From Bacilli bacterium (GTDB lineage Bacteria > Bacillota_I > Bacilli_A > RF39 > UBA660), in assembly GCA_017936845.1 (NCBI GenBank), contig JAGBES010000001.1, positions 11,026 through 75,025 on the forward strand: a stretch of DNA of 64,000 bases, given 5' to 3'. The stretch's first letter is position 1, and each line of letters opens with the position of its first letter. Position numbers and translations under genes: made by a program. The notes under the pieces are model-generated. The model was not told where the DNA came from. It did not search any database and was given only the letters and a program-made list of their open reading frames with translations. Of the stretch, positions 22,495 to 39,179 are shown piece after piece.

Positions 22495-22599
22495 GTACTT
22501 ATGAGCTTATTTTTTTTATAAAAAAAGAAAAAAATGTTTTATTTGAATAAATATTGTGTTATAATGATACATGAGAATAAGAAGACTAGGAGTGATATA

Positions 22600-30730: not shown

Positions 30731-31147
30731 ATGAAGCAAGGAATAGGATTTTCTGTAACAATTAATATAATGGCTATATTTATAGTGGTTACTTTTGCTT
30801 TTTTAGTAACCTCTTTAAATTATTATAAAGCATATAAAATTAATAATGCTATTTCAGATAGTATTGAAAAATATGAGGGTTATAATGAATTAGCTATTAA
30901 AGAAATTGATTCAAAACTATCAAGTCTTGGATATATAGATAATAAAGCAGGATGTAATAATAATAATTTATCATTCAATGATTCTACTTATAAAAATAGC
31001 TATTGTATTTATGAAGAAACAACAAAAAATAATAAATTCAAATATAAAGTTGTAACTTATATAAATTTTAATATACCAATTGTTAATAAAGTTATAAATC
31101 TTCCTGTAAAAACAACTACGGAATCAATATATTATTTTAGTGAATAG
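30731..31147 (+). CDS. TadE-like minor pilin / pseudopilin
   Basis: MKQGIG|FSVTINIMAIFIVVTFAFLV class-III-like signal. 138 aa. Paralogous to the next gene (shared SL.YYKAYKI/SLSYSKSYRI and YKYKVVTYINFNIPI/YKYYKVITFMKFEFPI). Confidence 0.6.
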   Translation: MKQGIGFSVTINIMAIFIVVTFAFLVTSLNYYKAYKINNAISDSIEKYEGYNELAIKEIDSKLSSLGYIDNKAGCNNNNLSFNDSTYKNSYCIYEETTKNNKFKYKVVTYINFNIPIVNKVINLPVKTTTESIYYFSE

Positions 31148-31159
31148 GAGTGATGTTTA

Positions 31160-31594
31160 ATGAGAGAAGCTACAGGTAATGCACTTTTAGTAGGTATGGT
31201 GACTTCTATGATAGCTGTAATAATGATATTTTTCGTAGGTTCTTTAAGTTATTCTAAATCTTATAGAATAAAAAATTATATTATTAATAGTATAGAAGAA
31301 AAGGGAGAATGGAATGATAGTATGTCTAATGAAATAGACGATTATTTAAAAAATGTTGGATATAATGTCAGAAAAGGTGAAAATAAGTGTCCTGATGTTA
31401 AATCTAACACAAATAATTGTTTATTACTTACTACTAGTAATTCTGGTTATGATTATTGTGTATATGGATGTAATGATGGTTCTTATAAATATTATAAAGT
31501 TATAACTTTTATGAAATTTGAATTTCCTATAATAAGTGAAACACTTAAATTTAAGGTACAAGGAGAAACAAAATCTTTTAATGAATTTAATTAG
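31160..31594 (+). CDS. TadE-like minor pilin / pseudopilin
   Basis: MREATG|NALLVGMVTSMIAVIMIFFVG class-III-like signal. 144 aa. Paralog of 30731..31147. Confidence 0.6.
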   Translation: MREATGNALLVGMVTSMIAVIMIFFVGSLSYSKSYRIKNYIINSIEEKGEWNDSMSNEIDDYLKNVGYNVRKGENKCPDVKSNTNNCLLLTTSNSGYDYCVYGCNDGSYKYYKVITFMKFEFPIISETLKFKVQGETKSFNEFN

Positions 31595-31611: not shown

Positions 31612-32598
31612 GTGAATGTAATTGTTTCAAATAAAAAGCAACAAATGTTACAAAATTTGAATATTGAAATAATAAAAGAATTAAATGGAGAATTTGAAGT
31701 TGATGATTTAATTAATAATTTTAAAAATTTTTTCTTTCAAAGAATGATATTAGATATAACAGCTTTAAAAAATTATAAAGATATAAAAACTATTCAAAAA
31801 TTATCAGTATCGTTAGATATGAATAAAGTTATATTAGTTCTAGATGAAAATTCAAACACTGTATCACCTGAATACATGTCTCAATTAATTTCATTAGGAA
31901 TATATAATTTTACTACTAATTTAGATGGCATAATTTATCTTTGTAATAGTCCAAATTCATATAGAGATGTGGCACATCTTCATATGATAGATATACCTAT
32001 TGTTAATAATCAACCTGTAGAAACTAAAACAAATACAGTTTATGTAGATAGATATGTTGAAGTTGAACCAACTATTAAAAGTTGTAGAATAATTGGAATA
32101 AAAAATGTAACGAAACAATCAGGTTCAACTACTTTTACATATATGATGAAAAAAATGCTTTCAAAAGCATATTCTGTTGTAGCTATCGAAGTTGAAAAAT
32201 CAGATTTTAGATTTTTTAATGATCATGATCTTGTTTCATCAACAAATAGTAACATAGGTAATATTGTAAATAAAAATAAAGATAAAGATGTTATTTTAAT
32301 CGATGTTAATAATAGTGAAAATGCTATTGGATTATGTGATGATGTAATATATTTATTAGAACCTTCAATGGTAAAATTAAATAGATTAATGATAGTTAAT
32401 CCTAAAATATTAGCGGAAATAAAAGATGAAAAAGTTATTTTAAATCAAAGCCTTTTAACTGAAAAAGATGTAAATGATTTTGAAAATGAATCGAGATTAA
32501 AAATCTTTTATAATATGCCACCACTAGATGAAAGAAAAGAAAATATAGAAGAATTAAGTCAATTTTTAAATAAATTGGGTTTTACAAAGTTAAATTAA
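31612..32598 (+). CDS. tadZ: TadZ/CpaE-like protein (pseudo-receiver domain + degenerate ParA/MinD ATPase)
   Basis: The N-terminal ~110 aa have a receiver-like alternating pattern. The C-terminal half has IIGIKNVTKQSGSTTFTYMMKKML (a degenerate deviant Walker A) and DVILIDVNNS (Walker B-like), the architecture described for TadZ. Confidence 0.55.
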   Translation: MNVIVSNKKQQMLQNLNIEIIKELNGEFEVDDLINNFKNFFFQRMILDITALKNYKDIKTIQKLSVSLDMNKVILVLDENSNTVSPEYMSQLISLGIYNFTTNLDGIIYLCNSPNSYRDVAHLHMIDIPIVNNQPVETKTNTVYVDRYVEVEPTIKSCRIIGIKNVTKQSGSTTFTYMMKKMLSKAYSVVAIEVEKSDFRFFNDHDLVSSTNSNIGNIVNKNKDKDVILIDVNNSENAIGLCDDVIYLLEPSMVKLNRLMIVNPKILAEIKDEKVILNQSLLTEKDVNDFENESRLKIFYNMPPLDERKENIEELSQFLNKLGFTKLN

Positions 32599-32609
32599 TG
32601 TCAACAATA

Positions 32610-32638
32610 TTGACAAAATATTAAAAATAAAGTATTAT
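32610..32638 (+). promoter_or_regulatory. Sigma-A type promoter of the T4SS module, overlapped by an inverted repeat
   Basis: TTGACA, 17 nt, TATTAT. The -35 hexamer is the right arm of the perfect inverted repeat TGTCAA-caata-TTGACA (32599-32615), a possible operator. Confidence 0.55.
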
Positions 32639-32685
32639 TAGATTGTTAGATGAGTTCATCTATTAATCTTAGAGGAGGGTTAAAT

Positions 32686-33027
32686 ATGTTTTTATTAGAA
32701 TGTGGAATATCTATAGATCCTATTGTTCCTGGTATTACTAGTACAATTGTAACTGTAATCAAATGGGCAATTCCAATAATTTTAATTATTTTAGGTCTTT
32801 TAGATATGGCTAAAGCAGTAATAGCAAATGAAGAAAAAGAGATGAAGGAAGCACAAAAAATGCTAATTAAAAGAATTATTTATGCTGTAGTAGCATTCTT
32901 AGTTGTAGCTTTAGTTCAAGCTGTGTTTGGATTATTAGCAAAAGCAGATACAAATGGTCAAAATGCTTCTAATGCAACTCAATGTATAAATTGCTTTATT
33001 AACAATAAGGATTGTGCAAGTCAATAA
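32686..33027 (+). CDS. VirB2/TrbC-like small two-TM 'pilin-like' conjugal transfer protein
   Basis: RBS GAGGAGGG precedes the ATG at 32686. It has two TM helices separated by the charged loop ANEEKEMKEAQKMLIKR, and a C-terminal tail with 3 Cys. It has its own promoter and terminator. Confidence 0.6.
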   Translation: MFLLECGISIDPIVPGITSTIVTVIKWAIPIILIILGLLDMAKAVIANEEKEMKEAQKMLIKRIIYAVVAFLVVALVQAVFGLLAKADTNGQNASNATQCINCFINNKDCASQ

Positions 33028-33036
33028 AATTTATTA

Positions 33037-33071
33037 AACAATAGAAATAATCTTTTCTATTGTTTTTTTTT
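33037..33071 (+). terminator. Intrinsic terminator / attenuator after the small VirB2-like gene
   Basis: AAACAATAGAAA-taatct-TTTCTATTGTTT hairpin followed by a T-run. Confidence 0.65.
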
Positions 33072-33116
33072 ATGTTATAATGTATATGTGTAAAAATATA
33101 TTTTTTGAGGTGCAAA

Positions 33117-34271
33117 ATGAAAAAAAAGTTAATATATATGTTAATATTATTTATAAGTTTATTTGTTTTTAATAACATAGAAGCAGTAAAAGCAGTTAAT
33201 GAAAATGATATAGCAGAAAAAACTACTCAGAATAATGGGATAACTTGCTCATATTATTTTTCTGATGATAGTTTGAGAGGATATAGTAATAGTTTTTATG
33301 TTAATTGTTATTTTTATAAATCAAATTTAAGTTATAGTAAATACTGTTTTTATAATGGTAATAAAATAAGTTTGGAAAATTGGGGAAGTATAAAAGGTAC
33401 AGATTTCAAGTTAAATAATTATATTAAAAGTCAAAATATTTGTCCTAAATATGCAATTTCAAATTATAAAAAGATTATTTTGGCTGATAGTGAAACAACA
33501 AAAAGTAATATAATAGAAAATAATGAAAATTATCAAAAGTTTAATCACACTGGAACTATATCAACAACATCAAAAACAGAAGAAGAAAAAAAAATGTGTT
33601 ATGAAGATTTAAATACAAATGTTTCTAATATTGAAAATATTATAAATAAATATGATTTTGAAACATGTAGTAAAAATAGTAATGGTGTTACTAATTTGAC
33701 ATCTTGTGAAAGTCAATTAGGATCATTGAAAACTTTTATTGATGGTTTTAATAAAAAATATGACGAATATTCGAAAATTAATTGTATTGATATTAATTCT
33801 CAAAATATTAAGCAATTAAAGACTAGTGTTGATTCTGCACAGAAATTTTATGATACTAAAAACACTGAATTGTTAGCTAAAAAGTGTGAAGAAAATCATA
33901 GTCTTGGTGTAAAATGTACAGATGAACAAGAGGAAGCATTAGTTGAAGTAACAAGAAAATATAATAGCGGATGCAACATTTTTGGTAATGAAGGTAGTAA
34001 AACTAGAAAATATATAAAATGGGCAATTAATATAATAAGATATGCAATCCCATTAATAATTGTAATATTTGGAATAACAGATTATTTAGGAGCATTATTT
34101 TCAGGAGAAGAGAAAAATATGAAAGAAGCTCAAAGAAGAGTGATTATGAGAGTAGTAATAGGTATAATAGCACTTTTACTTCCTGCATTAATTAAATTAT
34201 TAGTAAATATTTCTGGTTTAATATTTAACACAGGAATTGATAGTGGAGATATTTTTTGTGATTTTATATAG
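33117..34271 (+). CDS. Cys-rich ectodomain fused to a VirB2-like two-TM hairpin
   Basis: Signal peptide MKKKLIYMLILFISLFVFNNIEAVKA. A ~300-aa Cys-rich extracellular part is followed by a C-terminal hairpin, IRYAIPLIIVIFGITDYLGALFSGEEKNMKEAQRRVIMRVVIGIIALLLPALI. This hairpin is paralogous to 32686..33027 (IPIILIILGLLDMAKAVIANEEKEMKEAQKMLIKRIIYAVVAFLV). Confidence 0.6.
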   Translation: MKKKLIYMLILFISLFVFNNIEAVKAVNENDIAEKTTQNNGITCSYYFSDDSLRGYSNSFYVNCYFYKSNLSYSKYCFYNGNKISLENWGSIKGTDFKLNNYIKSQNICPKYAISNYKKIILADSETTKSNIIENNENYQKFNHTGTISTTSKTEEEKKMCYEDLNTNVSNIENIINKYDFETCSKNSNGVTNLTSCESQLGSLKTFIDGFNKKYDEYSKINCIDINSQNIKQLKTSVDSAQKFYDTKNTELLAKKCEENHSLGVKCTDEQEEALVEVTRKYNSGCNIFGNEGSKTRKYIKWAINIIRYAIPLIIVIFGITDYLGALFSGEEKNMKEAQRRVIMRVVIGIIALLLPALIKLLVNISGLIFNTGIDSGDIFCDFI

Positions 34272-34288: not shown

Positions 34289-36538
34289 ATGGTTCAGATT
34301 AGAGGCTTTTTTGCATCAATTGATAACTTTATTTATAGTTTTATTTCTATAGTATTTAATGTTATTGAATATTTGGCGCAAATTGATTTGTTTAGCAATG
34401 AAACTATAAATGGATTCACAACAAGAATATATACTATTTTAGGTATATTTATGTTATTTAAAGTTAGTTTTTCGTTTATAAGTTATTTGGTAGATCCTGA
34501 TAAATTTATGGATAAGAAAACTGGTTTTTCTAAAATGATTGTAAATATTATAGTAGTTTTTATATTATTAATTAGTGTTCCATGGGTATTTTCAACATTA
34601 AAAGGAGTTCAAAATGCTATTTTAGAAGATGAAATCATATCTAATTTTATACTGGGCGAAGATATGACTTCTATTTCATCTGAAAATGGAACAAGAAAAT
34701 ATGCTTTCAAATACGATCAAGCTTGTGATTCATATTCATATGCTAAAACTTCTGGTGATTATTTTGCAATAGCGCTACTTAGACCTTTTTATCAGTATTC
34801 TGATAGATATTTATCTAATTCTGGTGATGATAGTATTGCTGATACCACTGAAGATGCATTAAGAAAAAACGGTGTTTTATGTGCTAAAATTGATAATCAT
34901 GAATATTTAACTCCAAATGATATGTTAAATTATAAAGTTTTTTTAGCCACAAAAAATATGAGTGCAGAGGGTGCTTATATATTTGATGTGGCAGTAGATG
35001 CGATAGATACGACTGGTGTTGTAACAGCATTATCATTAAATTTTCAAGTAAGATATATGTTTTTTATTTCAACTATTGTAGGAATACTTGTTTTAGGATT
35101 ATTAATATCATTTGGTCTTGATATAGCAGTTAGATCCATAAAAATGAGTGTTTTACAAATATTGGCACCTATTCCAATTATATCTTATGTTGATCCTGAT
35201 AGTTCAAAGCATAAAATGTTTACTAACTGGTTAAAAGAAATTGGTAAAACTTGGGTTTCATTATTTATAAGACTTGGGACATTATATTTAATAATTTATA
35301 TATTAGAGATACTTGAAGTATCAAATATTTATAAAAATATTCCTGGGAAATTGTGGGTGTGGATAACATTATTTTATTTAATAGGAGCATTAATATTTGC
35401 TAAAAAGTTACCTTCATGGATTGAGTCTATGATAGGAATTAAATTTGATGGAGGATTTACATTAAACCCACTAAAGAAAATAAAAAATGAAGCACTAGGC
35501 GGAAAACAGGTTGCTAATGCTACAATGGGAGCTATAGGGGCAGGAGTTGGTCTTGCTGGATCGGTAGCAGCTCATAGCTTAGCTTATAATGCTAATAGAA
35601 AAAAGCTGAATACTGAAACTTCAAAATTAAATGATATAAGAAATAATAGAATACAGGGTATTCAAAATTATAGAAATATAAAAGCAGCAAGAAGAGAATC
35701 AATTGGAAAAGAAATGAATTCATTAGCGGGAAGAATTGAAGCATTAGATGCTTCTGGACGCGGGGATACAGCTTTAGCAGCATCATTAAGACATCAATAT
35801 AATGAAAAAGCCTCTCAGTTTCATAATATTAATAATGATGAAGAAGTAGCAACAGCAAGAAGAGCAGCTTTATCAAATGCTAAAGTTGAAAGAGAAAAAT
35901 ATGCTGAACAACAAGCAAAGGTTGATGAAATTGCTAAAAAACCAATGATGAAAAATCCTATTGGTAGTGCAGCAGGAGAAATAGCTAGAGGATTTGTTGG
36001 TGGAGCAAAACATGCTTATCAAGCTGATACTTTAAATGTTGGAAAAATAGTAAATGCTGGATTAAAAGGAACAGATGATGCTGCAAGAAAACGTAATTAT
36101 CGTGAGGATTTCTCTATAAAAGATGAATTCTATGACAGAAAGACTTCATTTGCAAGAATTAAAAATGAGTCTGGAACTTCAAGCGAAATAGATAAAGAAA
36201 TCAAGAAACTTAGAAGTGAAATGACTAGAGAAATGAATACTTTAAATCAACTTAATAATACGATTGCAAACTTATCAAACAGTGTATCAAGTGGTAAACA
36301 AGCAGAAGCAATTAGAATTACTTCAAGTAATAAAGATGATTTTGTTAGTAAATATAATTCATATGATGACTACAGAGCGAAAAACTCTAGTACTTCATTA
36401 GATAAGGATGACTTCGATAAATTGTATGAAGCTATGTCAGCTTGGGTTAGAATTCAAAAATCTATTGATGATCACGAAAAGAACATTAAGAAATACGAAA
36501 AAATGCAAGAGGCACAAAATAAAAGAGGAAAAGAATAA
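34289..36538 (+). CDS. VirB6/TrbL-like polytopic T4SS channel protein with long coiled-coil cytoplasmic tail
   Basis: 749 aa. The N-terminal ~430 aa hold at least 6 TM helices. The C-terminal ~300 aa are Ala/Lys/Glu-rich and helical. Its position between the VirB2-like and VirB3/VirB4 genes fits. Confidence 0.6.
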   Translation: MVQIRGFFASIDNFIYSFISIVFNVIEYLAQIDLFSNETINGFTTRIYTILGIFMLFKVSFSFISYLVDPDKFMDKKTGFSKMIVNIIVVFILLISVPWVFSTLKGVQNAILEDEIISNFILGEDMTSISSENGTRKYAFKYDQACDSYSYAKTSGDYFAIALLRPFYQYSDRYLSNSGDDSIADTTEDALRKNGVLCAKIDNHEYLTPNDMLNYKVFLATKNMSAEGAYIFDVAVDAIDTTGVVTALSLNFQVRYMFFISTIVGILVLGLLISFGLDIAVRSIKMSVLQILAPIPIISYVDPDSSKHKMFTNWLKEIGKTWVSLFIRLGTLYLIIYILEILEVSNIYKNIPGKLWVWITLFYLIGALIFAKKLPSWIESMIGIKFDGGFTLNPLKKIKNEALGGKQVANATMGAIGAGVGLAGSVAAHSLAYNANRKKLNTETSKLNDIRNNRIQGIQNYRNIKAARRESIGKEMNSLAGRIEALDASGRGDTALAASLRHQYNEKASQFHNINNDEEVATARRAALSNAKVEREKYAEQQAKVDEIAKKPMMKNPIGSAAGEIARGFVGGAKHAYQADTLNVGKIVNAGLKGTDDAARKRNYREDFSIKDEFYDRKTSFARIKNESGTSSEIDKEIKKLRSEMTREMNTLNQLNNTIANLSNSVSSGKQAEAIRITSSNKDDFVSKYNSYDDYRAKNSSTSLDKDDFDKLYEAMSAWVRIQKSIDDHEKNIKKYEKMQEAQNKRGKE

Positions 36539-36551
36539 GGGGATGGAATAA

Positions 36552-36875
36552 ATGAATAATGGTAGATTTTTAATACCAGCAAATTCTAAAAAATCATTGT
36601 TGATTTTTGGGATATTTAATAAATTTGATGCAATATTATTTGGAACAGGTATTGGTATAACGTTAATATTAATGATGATATTACCTATAGCAGATATAGT
36701 ATGGGCAATAGTTGCTATTGCCCCTGTTGTAATAACAGGATTTCTTGTTTTCCCTGTTCCAAATTATCATAATGTTATGACAGTTTTAATAGAAACTTGG
36801 CAATTTTTTACATCAAGGCAAAGATTCATTTGGAAAGGTTGGTGTTTTACTAGTGAAAAAGACGATAAAGAGTAA
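36552..36875 (+). CDS. VirB3/PrgI-like small membrane protein
   Basis: 107 aa. N-terminal MNNGRFLIPANSKKSLLIFGI... is followed by two TM helices. It lies immediately upstream of, and overlaps, the VirB4 N-terminal ORF. Confidence 0.6.
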   Translation: MNNGRFLIPANSKKSLLIFGIFNKFDAILFGTGIGITLILMMILPIADIVWAIVAIAPVVITGFLVFPVPNYHNVMTVLIETWQFFTSRQRFIWKGWCFTSEKDDKE

Positions 36876-37398
36876 ATATACAAATGATTTTGTACCAATA
36901 AAAAGTATAACTAATGGAATGGTTATCCTAGATAATAATAAAAAATTAACAGGAATAAAAATAATGCCTAGAAACATTTTTATTCTAGATCAAGGAACAC
37001 AAAATGCTATCATAGATAATCTAAAGAATGCTTATAATATGATAGATTATGAGTTTTGGATTATAGCAGCAGATAGACCTGTTGATATAAATTTATTTTT
37101 ATCACAACTTCAATTATTATTTAATTCAACACAAGATCAAATAAAAAGAAAAATGATTATGGAAGATATAAATAAAGCAAATTTATTTATGAATAATAAT
37201 ATTGTAGATACTGAATATTTCTTGTTATTTGTTGAAAAAGATACTGATAAGATAAATAAAAGAATAAGACAACTTATAAATGGTTTTGCTAATGCAGGTT
37301 TAACTTCACATCAAGTAACTAATGATGATTTAAGAATTATACTAGATAATTTCTTAAATGGTGGACAAACTACTACATTTGGGACGGTGATTGGATAA
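36853..37398 (+). CDS. VirB4-family ATPase, N-terminal domain encoded as a separate ORF
   Basis: FVPIKSITNGMVILDNNKKLTGIKIMPRNIFILDQGTQNAIIDNLKNAYNMIDYEFWII corresponds to the N-terminal region of single-chain Gram-positive VirB4s (as I recall Tn916 Orf16: IPYKEMFKDGICRV...TIQFEDINYQLA...IFEEWCNFLNYF). It ends in TAATG overlapping the next start. Confidence 0.6.
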   Translation: MKKTIKSKYTNDFVPIKSITNGMVILDNNKKLTGIKIMPRNIFILDQGTQNAIIDNLKNAYNMIDYEFWIIAADRPVDINLFLSQLQLLFNSTQDQIKRKMIMEDINKANLFMNNNIVDTEYFLLFVEKDTDKINKRIRQLINGFANAGLTSHQVTNDDLRIILDNFLNGGQTTTFGTVIG

Positions 37399-39179
37399 TG
37401 GATATAAAAGCGCAAATAGCTCCTAAAGGACTAGAATTTAAACCAAATCATTTTATAATAAGTGATAAATATGCTACTATTTTAACAGTTATATCTTATC
37501 CTAAAATAATTTCACCAGGGTACTTATCATCGCTTACAAGTATGTCTGGAATAAAAGTTGTTATAAAACACATTCCAGTACCATTTAGTATGATAAGTAA
37601 AATGTTAAATAAAGAAATATATGCTTTAAAACAAAGATATCAAGAAGAAAATGATAGAACTATTCAAGAAAGAATTAGACAGGATTATGAATCATTAGAA
37701 GTATTTATATCACAACTTGCAGCTAATCAATCAAAAATATTTGATTTTCAAATGCATATTATGATAACTGCTGATAGTGAAGATGAATTAAATAATAAAA
37801 AAATACAAGTAAGAAGTTATCTAGAAGCAATGGAAATGCGTGCATTTCCACTTAGATTTGAACAAGAAAAAGTATTAAAATCAATTTTACCTATATTTGA
37901 TAAACAAGATATAGAAGATAGAATAGGAACGCCAATTCCAGCTCCTACAATAGCAGCTATGTATCCTTTTATTTTTGATAGTATAAAAGATCCTGGATTA
38001 TCAGCATTATTAGGTGTAGATTTTTCAGGTGGAGTTATTCTATTTAATCAATTCCTATATCAAATAAAAAAAGAACACAATAGAAATAATGCTAATTTAA
38101 TTATTTTAGGTACAAGTGGTAGTGGAAAAAGTACTGCAGCTAAGTTGTTGATTAGAACTCATATAAGGAACAATTGTCAAGTTGTTATAATCGATCCAGA
38201 AGGTGAATTTGAACCAATGGCTAGAAGATATAAGGGCGATTTCATTGACTTAGGTAAAGGTGGAGAATATGGTATGATAAATCCACTTGAAGTAATAATA
38301 GATGCTGATGAAGATGAAATACAAGGTGGACTTGGATATACAGTTTTAACAAGAACATTACAAAGTATAAAAGCATTTATGAAGTACTATGATCCTAATA
38401 TAGAAGAAGATGTTCTTAATATGTTTAGTGAAATAGTTCAAGAAACATATAGAAGATTTGGAATGAATTTTGATACAGATTTTTCAAAATTTGGACCTGA
38501 AGATTATCCTACATTTAAAGATGTTTATGCTACTATAAAGGGTAGACTTGCATCAATGGTAGAAAAAACACATGAAAAAGATGTTATGGAAAGACTTGAA
38601 CTTAAAGTAAGACCAATAGTTAAAGAACTTAAGTACTACTTTGATGGGCATACGACAATAAGACCACAAAGTACATTTATAGTATTTAATATAAGAGAAC
38701 TTATGAATGCTGATACTAATATAAAGAATGCGTTGTTCTTTAATATATTAAAATATGCATGGGGATTAACTCTTGATAAAAGAGTAAATACAATATTAAG
38801 TGTTGATGAAGCACATGTGTTATTATCAGGAAATAATACTTTAGGTGCTGATTTCTTAGCTCAAATTCAAAGACGTGCTAGAAAATACAATACAGGTACA
38901 ATTATAATAACTCAACAACCAAGTGATTTTAGTGACCCAGGTGTTATAACACAAGGAAAAGCAATATTTGACAATGCTTCTTATTACTTAGTTATGGGTC
39001 TTAAAAAACAAGCTGTTGAAGATTTATCTAAATTAATAGATTTAAATGATAATGAAAAAGAAAATATTAAAAGATACAATCAAGGTGATGCATTATTCAT
39101 TTGTGGTAGTAGAAGAATGCAAATTAATATAATTGCTACTGAACAAGAACTAGATTCGTTTAGTGGTGGAGGATTTTAA
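37398..39179 (+). CDS. virB4: VirB4-family T4SS ATPase, middle and C-terminal ATPase domains
   Basis: Walker A LGTSGSGKST and Walker B ILSVDEAHVLL. The N-terminal IAPKGLEFKPNHFIISDKYATILTVISYP matches the VirB4 pattern d.iaP.s..f......g.y.r.l.v..yP. Confidence 0.88.
   Translation: MDIKAQIAPKGLEFKPNHFIISDKYATILTVISYPKIISPGYLSSLTSMSGIKVVIKHIPVPFSMISKMLNKEIYALKQRYQEENDRTIQERIRQDYESLEVFISQLAANQSKIFDFQMHIMITADSEDELNNKKIQVRSYLEAMEMRAFPLRFEQEKVLKSILPIFDKQDIEDRIGTPIPAPTIAAMYPFIFDSIKDPGLSALLGVDFSGGVILFNQFLYQIKKEHNRNNANLIILGTSGSGKSTAAKLLIRTHIRNNCQVVIIDPEGEFEPMARRYKGDFIDLGKGGEYGMINPLEVIIDADEDEIQGGLGYTVLTRTLQSIKAFMKYYDPNIEEDVLNMFSEIVQETYRRFGMNFDTDFSKFGPEDYPTFKDVYATIKGRLASMVEKTHEKDVMERLELKVRPIVKELKYYFDGHTTIRPQSTFIVFNIRELMNADTNIKNALFFNILKYAWGLTLDKRVNTILSVDEAHVLLSGNNTLGADFLAQIQRRARKYNTGTIIITQQPSDFSDPGVITQGKAIFDNASYYLVMGLKKQAVEDLSKLIDLNDNEKENIKRYNQGDALFICGSRRMQINIIATEQELDSFSGGGF

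Follow-up and report, generated by a model that had tools for sequence, protein, structure and literature searches.

A candidate pilin-like gene pair that heads a chromosomal type IV secretion locus in RF39-like Bacilli

The 64,000-nucleotide stretch of DNA analyzed here (hereafter, the window) is from an uncultured, gut-dwelling Bacilli bacterium of the RF39 lineage (GenBank assembly GCA_017936845.1, contig JAGBES010000001.1, positions 11,026 to 75,025). Its genome, labeled G000, is a 1.12-Mb draft with 24% G+C that is 88% complete, and the window lies on its contig C29. Two adjacent genes are the focus of this study. One encodes a free-standing hairpin protein of 113 amino acids (32686..33027; the small protein) and the other encodes a fused paralog of 384 amino acids (33117..34271; the large protein). 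Both genes, their expression signals, and the secretion genes that follow are on the + strand. Domain scans of the window place the pair between a Tad-type pilus module and genes of a type IV secretion system (T4SS). We suggest, with a probability of roughly 0.55, that the two proteins are paralogous pilin-like subunits, one the main subunit and the other a minor, target-contacting subunit, of a chromosomal T4SS of the kind encoded by integrative and conjugative elements (ICEs) of Mycoplasma and by mating-pair formation systems of the FATA type (MPF-FATA). Comparisons are based on 80 related loci from human and animal guts, 41 of which have enough downstream sequence to score T4SS neighbors and are referred to as informative, and on 121 genomes (120 genera for VirB4) of the host's bacterial family.

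The gene pair and its expression signals

The small gene starts at ATG 32686, and its homologs likewise encode proteins of 111–121 amino acids. Its product, which has 45 close homologs, consists of an N-terminal tail of ∼20 residues that includes C6, a first transmembrane helix (TM1), a charged loop, a second transmembrane helix (TM2), and a C-terminal tail with C100, C103, and C110. Upstream is a sigma-70-type promoter (TTGACA-17-TATTAT, 32610..32638) that agrees with the consensus at 11 of 12 positions and is the top site between 31500 and 34500. A strong ribosome-binding site (AGAGGAGGG, 32671..32679) is located 6 nucleotides 5′ of the ATG, and close relatives keep GAGGAGGG at this site. 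Downstream is an intrinsic terminator (33036..33071) with a 12-bp A+U-rich stem, a 6-nucleotide loop, and a T-run; the stem-loop spans 33036–33065 and the Ts extend to 33071. Its folding energy is −11.5 kcal/mol (centroid; z-score of −4.3) and none of 200 shuffled sequences folds equally well. A scan for consensus terminators missed it because the stem is A+U-rich. An extended −10 promoter element (TGTTATAAT, 33073..33081), assigned to the large gene and the T4SS genes, abuts the T-run of the terminator.

The promoter, terminator, and restart promoter are conserved across divergent relatives. By inspection, TTGACA is at the matching position in 16 of 17 related loci. In all 17 inspected loci, a hairpin and T-run followed by TGnTATAAT are directly 3′ of the small gene, with stems that differ in sequence. 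When all loci are considered, a T-run with TGnTATAAT follows 35 of 128 genes for free-standing versions of the hairpin versus 9 of 613 other open reading frame (ORF) ends. The wide conservation of a strong promoter, a strong ribosome-binding site, and a dedicated terminator suggests that the small protein is in far greater demand than the secretion machinery. Judging from these sequence signals, we read the small gene as monocistronic and highly expressed, with the T4SS operon driven separately. Transcription would restart at the extended −10 promoter directly after the terminator, and amounts of the main subunit and of the machinery would therefore be uncoupled. A terminator followed by an immediate restart promoter provides a clean, testable example of how subunit ratios could be set inside one gene cluster.

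An earlier note on this DNA, made from the sequence alone, had described both ORFs, a consensus-like promoter whose −35 hexamer lies inside an inverted repeat, a strong hairpin terminator, and a small gene with a promoter and terminator of its own. These descriptions are borne out by the folding and conservation data. The note had also treated the inverted repeat as a candidate operator, and this idea is not supported. The repeat, TGTCAA-caata-TTGACA, is visible in the sequence (32599..32615) and its right arm doubles as the −35 hexamer. In close relatives, the arms are 5 to ∼16 nucleotides apart and therefore do not fit a fixed dimer operator; in more distant loci, the left arm is absent. The variable spacing and poor conservation speak against an operator role. 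Between the promoter and the ribosome-binding site, a stem-loop is predicted in the 5′ untranslated region (TAGATG-agtt-CATCTA, 32647..32662), near the expected start of the transcript, with a z-score of −1.6, which is weak evidence. The stem-loop is present with variable loops in six close loci, and other small hairpins are present there in at least four more distant loci.

Translation of the large gene begins at ATG 33117. Its product has a Sec-type signal peptide (MKKKLIYMLILFISLFVFNNIEAVKA, residues 1–26), a small alpha/beta N-terminal domain, three long helices, and a C-terminal hairpin module (residues 284–384; 33966..34268) that is flanked by conserved C286 and C381 and scores 57 bits against the family profile A2. 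The exported domain (residues 27–283, ∼257 amino acids) has 10 cysteines, which at 3.9% versus 1.2% for ORFs of the window justifies its earlier description as Cys-rich. All large paralogs have C-x-Y just after the signal peptide and C-P-x-Y ∼70–90 residues later. Among Pfam domains, the large protein has none besides a weak match to PF18895 (13.9 bits). Its AlphaFold2 (AF2) model has a predicted local distance difference test (pLDDT) score of 71.5 and places the hairpin at residues 295–370. With a predicted template modeling (pTM) score of only 0.38, the model has no structural neighbor in the PDB at E ≤ 0.001 in Foldseek searches.

Homologs of the large protein are alike in the signal peptide and in the last ∼100 residues and unlike in the exported domain. 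Relative to protein P0048, identities are 24 of 26 residues in the signal peptide, 43 of 257 in the exported domain, and 94 of 101 in the module. Hairpin modules are 81–93% identical among proteins with exported domains that are only 14–17% identical. Relative to the closest genome (L021), identity is 97% for VirB4, 95% for the VirB3-like protein, and 88% for the small protein. In the large protein, the hairpin is 81% identical and the N-terminal part is 34% identical. The VirB6-like protein, encoded by the next gene, is only 54% identical to this closest relative. Its variation is in an exposed loop (residues 101–250) and a hydrophilic C-terminal tail (residues 450–749), whereas its membrane core is 70–90% identical. 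Two divergence hotspots stand out, one in the exported domain of the large protein and the other in the exposed regions of the VirB6-like protein. An exported domain that is hypervariable between conserved flanks is as expected of a contact or adhesin part and agrees with the adhesin-type ectodomain that had been proposed for the large protein.

The shared hairpin module and its linkage to type IV secretion

The two proteins are true paralogs with a common hairpin module, as the earlier note had proposed. Residues 22–70 of the small protein align without gaps to residues 304–352 of the large protein, with 20 identities over 49 positions (41%), 73% positives, and an E value of 2e-13 (BLASTP with composition correction). 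The connecting loop, which had been called near-identical, is similar in the two proteins, with identity at 10 of its 17 residues; the term is slightly generous. In the AF2 model of the small protein, the module is a helical hairpin (residues 13–47 and 50–90) with a pLDDT of 77 overall and 87–90 over the hairpin. In both proteins, a short charged loop is predicted to connect two hydrophobic helices, which is the layout of PF18895-type proteins. The positive-inside rule, the location of signal peptides ahead of N-terminal exported domains, and the presence of exported domains at either end of the module lead us to infer that both termini are outside the cell and that the charged loop is cytoplasmic. 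The cysteine before TM1 and the cysteine after TM2 are probably joined by a disulfide, which would link the two outer tails.

The module defines a large family. A profile of 34 homologs, searched against 1.84 billion representatives, matched 8480 clusters at E ≤ 1e-3 and 3670 clusters at E ≤ 1e-10. Among the best 150 family members, 64 are free-standing, 38 have an exported domain followed by a C-terminal module, 33 have the module at the N-terminus, and 15 have it in the middle of the protein. The 33 members with an N-terminal module have a signal peptide, the module, and then a C-terminal exported domain. In these best 150 members, the domains fused to the module carry 4–7% Cys, 97% of members have a Cys before helix 1, and 98% have a Cys after helix 2. 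Further conserved positions are P, G, and D in the first helix, R, F, and Q in the second, and a K/E/K/Q-rich loop between them. Conservation of polar residues and cysteines is far beyond the needs of a plain membrane anchor. Proteins with the module are unnamed in public databases, and we found no papers that describe this family in RF39-like Bacilli.

The genome has a lipoprotein thioredoxin-like protein (contig C11; L121:1501-1914) with the lipobox LTGC and the active site CSHC. It is a candidate to form disulfides in the Cys-rich exported proteins of the locus. A related thioredoxin gene adjoins the pilin-like array in two related loci, L003 and L004.

Only three copies of the module are present in the genome, two at this locus and one orphan. 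The orphan, P0200, is a protein of 271 amino acids (contig C13:11085-11900; L120:7086-7901) with a signal peptide, the hairpin, and a Cys-rich C-terminal tail that has repeats such as SCSERSDCKWTGS. A 377-amino-acid open frame elsewhere in the genome has a weak match to PF18895 (contig C30:4370-4513; 20.9 bits) that is unseen by the family profile. This match could reflect a still more diverged copy or be noise.

The gene directly downstream of the pair (34289..36538) encodes the VirB6-like protein, an extended membrane protein of 749 amino acids that resembles TrbL_4 and Mbov_0396 (PF19597, 23.7 bits; NF045889, 28 bits; both under cutoff). It is likely the assembly platform. It is followed by a gene for a separate VirB3-like protein of 107 amino acids and by a VirB4 ATPase gene that is split into two overlapping ORFs of 181 and 593 amino acids (together, 36552..39179). 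The two VirB4 parts match NF045975, the family of VirB4 of Mycoplasma ICEs, with 55 and 353.7 bits, both under cutoff (590). Pfam and NCBIfam searches also identified a SpoIID+CHAP wall hydrolase among the T4SS genes and, further on, a VirD4 coupling protein. This hydrolase and penicillin-binding proteins (PBPs), also recognized with Pfam, indicate that the host is cell-walled.

The association between the module and the T4SS is recurrent. In 32 of 41 informative loci (78%), genes for VirB4 and a VirB6-like protein are just downstream of the module genes. Metagenome contigs repeatedly show the order small gene, fused gene, VirB6-like, VirB3-like, VirB4-N, and VirB4-C. Tandem arrays of 2–7 module genes are present in 69 of 80 related loci. 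Across the 121 genomes of the host's family, 118 encode the module, with 1–16 copies each, and 112 (111 of 120 genera) encode the split VirB4, mostly as a single copy and at 67–86% identity, for a prevalence of ∼93–98%. These distributions imply a vertically inherited core system rather than a sporadic ICE. Likewise, the 593-amino-acid form of VirB4 is kept as open frames of ∼600 amino acids in the 112 genomes, and therefore the split is ancestral and functional and not a sign of a pseudogene.

In a distant relative (L003:5578-10039), two TrbL_4 (VirB6-like) genes are separated by a module gene that encodes a protein of 117 amino acids with a signal peptide (L003:7432-7785). In this relative, the module is missing from the second gene downstream of the small pilin-like gene. 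The layout of the arrays is therefore flexible.

We considered whether the locus is a mobile element, such as an ICE, and rejected this explanation. No relaxase or integrase domain was detected in the ORFs of the locus that were scanned, nearly all genomes of the family have VirB4, and the block of Tad and T4SS genes (window positions 22500–46200) is flanked by housekeeping genes such as those for superoxide dismutase, PBP2, and elongation factor P. Neither the locus, in megablast searches, nor the small protein, in tblastn searches, had a match in a plasmid collection. A search of the genome detected no Rep_trans or MobA-type relaxases. Two Mob_Pre (MOBV-type) relaxase genes are elsewhere in the genome (contigs C31:30038-30613 and C7:61581-62027), and their products could use this T4SS in trans.

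Relation to pilins and competing explanations

The closest curated families of the module are those of T4SS pilins. The top Pfam match of the small protein is PF18895 (T4SS_pilin; 20.2 bits, E of 6.4e-4, model positions 8–71 of 71), and 29 of 54 diverse module members likewise have PF18895 as their best-matching family. In NCBIfam, the small protein best matches NF045849, the family of the Mbov_0395 pilin-like protein (19.5 bits, E of 5.8e-4, model positions 9–77 of 80), which is also the top match, always weak, of nine of these 54 members. The top two NCBIfam families for the module are both small conjugal-transfer proteins of Mycoplasma ICEs. The orphan P0200 exceeds the PF18895 cutoff (27.6 bits with hmmscan and 31.3 in the genome search), as do module genes of relatives with up to 39 bits, and all of these are strong matches of the A2 profile. 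PF18895 was matched in just 1 of 14 control genomes but singles out the module in this genome and in its relatives. Two other Bacilli proteins pass the cutoffs of both PF18895 and PF04956 (TrbC/VirB2) on the same residues, and therefore the two models overlap. At the level of sequence, there is thus an indirect chain from the pair to classical TrbC/VirB2 by way of PF18895.

Several results weigh against a pilin identity. With 20.2 and 13.9 bits, both copies in the window are under the PF18895 gathering cutoff of 26.6, and the NF045849 score of the small protein is below the equivalog cutoff of 40. The pair was unmatched by PF04956 at E ≤ 1 in the search of the genome. When the family profile was aligned with hhalign to nine TrbC-type and four bridging proteins, probabilities were 0.6% and 0.4%, and the A2 hidden Markov model scored ∼0 bits on such proteins; the reference sets in these comparisons are small and heterogeneous, which makes them a weak test. 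A profile search of PDB sequences recovered no pilins and only chance matches to the TM5-loop-TM6 hairpin of rhodopsin. Foldseek searches with the AF2 models of the two proteins yielded nothing at E ≤ 0.001 and, as best matches, only generic transmembrane hairpins (HtrII) or long helices, though a two-helix hairpin is too simple for the method to be informative. Unlike VirB2, TrbC, and TraA, the small protein starts with MFLLEC and lacks a hydrophobic signal segment or cleavable leader. The signal peptide of the large protein precedes an exported domain of ∼260 amino acids and hence does not correspond to the leader of PF04956 pilins. Finally, the orphan P0200 is away from the T4SS, among genes for PBP5-like, EngB/EngA GTPase, and topoisomerase proteins.

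The label VirB2-like, which the earlier note had given to the pair, stands to the extent that T4SS-pilin families are the best curated matches and that linkage to the T4SS is recurrent. It falls short in the sub-cutoff PF18895 scores and in the negative results with PF04956, hhalign, and the PDB. The note had also taken as established that Gram-positive T4SSs carry VirB2-like proteins. Published work states the opposite. Monoderm (Gram-positive) T4SSs are described as lacking VirB2-type pilins and relying on adhesins, with Patescibacteria as the sole recent exception (PMC4027160, PMC12857230), and Guglielmini et al. did not find pilin homologs in monoderm classes (PMC4027160).

On balance, we still favor paralogous pilin-like subunits of a chromosomal T4SS. 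Our estimate for this explanation is a compromise. We are fairly confident that the two proteins are members of a pilin family dedicated to T4SSs but lean somewhat against the view that they really polymerize. In the proposed mechanism, the small protein, with its strong promoter, strong ribosome-binding site, and own terminator, would be the abundant main subunit. It would stay membrane-embedded until extracted by the VirB6-like platform and VirB4, which would stack the subunits into a stalk or short filament across the cell wall. The large protein would join the structure in low numbers through the same module, which would equip the tip or surface with a strain-variable exported domain for contact with target cells.

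The strongest competitor, which we regard as unlikely though well short of dismissible, is that the hairpin serves for docking or anchoring in the T4SS membrane complex and does not polymerize. The channel would contain the small protein in stoichiometric amounts, as is thought for small membrane proteins of other Gram-positive T4SSs, and the large protein an anchored surface adhesin in a PrgB-type role. Linkage of the module to the T4SS is expected under this explanation, solved pilins are without detectable similarity to the module, and the published view is that monoderm T4SSs use adhesins and not pili (PMC4027160). In addition, exported domains at either end of the module, present in ∼57% of the best members, would be bulky in a tightly packed pilus, and covariation with the exposed regions of the VirB6-like protein is as compatible with docking as with assembly. 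However, a fixed channel part does not call for the much greater demand that the separate strong promoter, ribosome-binding site, and terminator of the small gene suggest. Up to seven paralogs per locus and 16 copies per genome are also more like pilin arrays than fixed parts of a channel, and it is pilin families that are the best curated matches.

The covarying parts bear on another, improbable explanation, in which the gene pair is a device for self/nonself recognition or exclusion. Partners would be told apart by the variable exported domain, which the hairpin would anchor, together with the variable loop and tail of the VirB6-like protein, as in the TraG/Eex pairs of conjugative elements, and the small protein would be an accessory. 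The exported domain (14–17%) and VirB6-like protein (54%) do diverge together while VirB3 and VirB4 stay at 95–97%, but rapid surface divergence is equally predicted by phage or host immune pressure or by changing targets. Moreover, no likeness to known exclusion proteins was detected in Pfam or NCBIfam, and exclusion leaves the abundant free-standing paralog and the multigene arrays unexplained. A role of the variable parts in recognition or exclusion is possible and compatible with the other explanations. Least probable, and largely refuted, is that the hairpin is a generic membrane anchor unrelated to type IV secretion and that its PF18895 matches are hydrophobic noise. Every direct match of the pair is below threshold, the same lists include spurious matches to seven-transmembrane receptors and MscL, and one copy is among housekeeping genes. 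The earlier note had named a generic anchor shared by unrelated proteins of the genome as grounds for abandoning its proposal, but a genome with only three copies does not fit this description. Nor do polar residues and a Cys pair that are strongly conserved over thousands of clusters, T4SS linkage in 78% of informative loci, or a Pfam model that selects this module and is matched in 1 of 14 control genomes.

A broader view extends the idea of pilin-like subunits to the whole family and is, in our estimate, unlikely though not remote. These walled gut Bacilli with genomes of ∼1 Mb would share, beside a Tad system, a vertically inherited chromosomal T4SS that builds a true VirB2-type filament or stalk of disulfide-tied pilin across the wall, with interchangeable paralogs that present strain-variable exported domains at its tip, and that serves contact-dependent exchange of DNA, proteins, or nutrients with adjacent cells rather than the spread of one mobile element. 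If true, a filament in walled Bacilli would add an independent second example to that of Patescibacteria, and the rule that pilins are absent from Gram-positive T4SSs would no longer stand. Polymerization of the module would reveal a T4SS route across the Gram-positive wall and identify the variable exported domains and VirB6 loops as the parts that recognize targets. It would also hint that contact-dependent exchange belongs to the lifestyle of these auxotrophic gut bacteria. The pair represents a pilin-like family that is multicopy, that often carries fused and rapidly evolving exported domains, and that heads a core-genome T4SS in a large family of small-genome gut Bacilli.

Comparison with known systems and the neighboring Tad module

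The closest published parallel is in Patescibacteria (candidate phyla radiation), whose T4SSs have arrays of VirB2-like pilins that were detected with PF18895 and PF04956 (PMC12102498; reviewed in PMC12857230). Both hosts are monoderms with very small genomes. Both keep a chromosomal MPF-FATA-type T4SS across the lineage with no relaxase at the locus, which for the window refers to the ORFs scanned, and both encode a separate type IV filament system (type IV pili or Tad) as well. In each, divergent two-helix pilin-like genes are arranged in tandem near virB4, in arrays of 2–11 genes in Patescibacteria and 2–7 genes here. In contrast to Patescibacteria, the host here is a cell-walled member of Bacilli with PBPs and a SpoIID+CHAP wall hydrolase, it encodes a VirD4 coupling protein and has the two Mob_Pre relaxases elsewhere in its genome, and the module copies in the window are below the PF18895 cutoff. 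Furthermore, many of the paralogs here are fused to large Cys-rich exported domains and a Cys pair flanks the hairpin.

The order of genes resembles that of Mycoplasma ICEs, in which a small two-helix transmembrane protein (Mbov_0395/MMCAP2_0565) is followed by a VirB6-like transmembrane protein and VirB4 (Mbov_0395/0396/0397). The VirB4 parts and VirB6-like protein of the window also have their best matches in these families, all below cutoffs. Scores are, however, far under the equivalog cutoffs (19.5 vs. 40 for the small protein; 353.7 vs. 590 for VirB4). Unlike in Mycoplasma, the system is part of the core chromosome and not an ICE, VirB4 is split, and the host has a cell wall. A paralog fused to an exported domain and a separate VirB3-like gene are also inserted here.

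TrbC and VirB2 are cyclic proteins whose head is joined to the tail, and pilins of this kind polymerize into lipid-containing helical pili. By analogy, the module could have its ends tied by the conserved Cys pair. The small protein is similar to TrbC/VirB2 (PF04956) in size class and in its pair of hydrophobic helices with a short charged loop between them, and its gene likewise heads genes for VirB3, VirB4, and VirB6. It differs in having no direct match to them in sequence, profile, or fold and no long cleaved leader.

The role proposed for the large protein would be analogous to that of a VirB5-type minor pilin or tip adhesin, in that contact would be the task of a low-copy subunit. The major and minor subunits would have a polymerization module in common, as they do in type IV pili. 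Likeness to VirB5/TraC was not detected in Pfam or NCBIfam, nor by Foldseek against the PDB at E ≤ 0.001 with a model that has a pTM of 0.38. VirB5 itself does not have a VirB2 module.

The Tad module on the other side of the pair comprises genes for RcpC/CpaB, a CpaF-like ATPase, TadB/C-like proteins, and Flp-like proteins. Two adjacent Tad-module proteins of 138 and 144 amino acids (window positions 30731–31594) are paralogs with ∼31% identity, recognized via cross-matches in relatives, and they are 54–71% conserved in close loci. Immediately 5′ of the small gene, a protein of 328 amino acids without a Pfam match is encoded at window positions 31612–32598. It has a homolog in 48 of 80 related loci, and its sequence suggests a degenerate ParA/CpaE-like P-loop.

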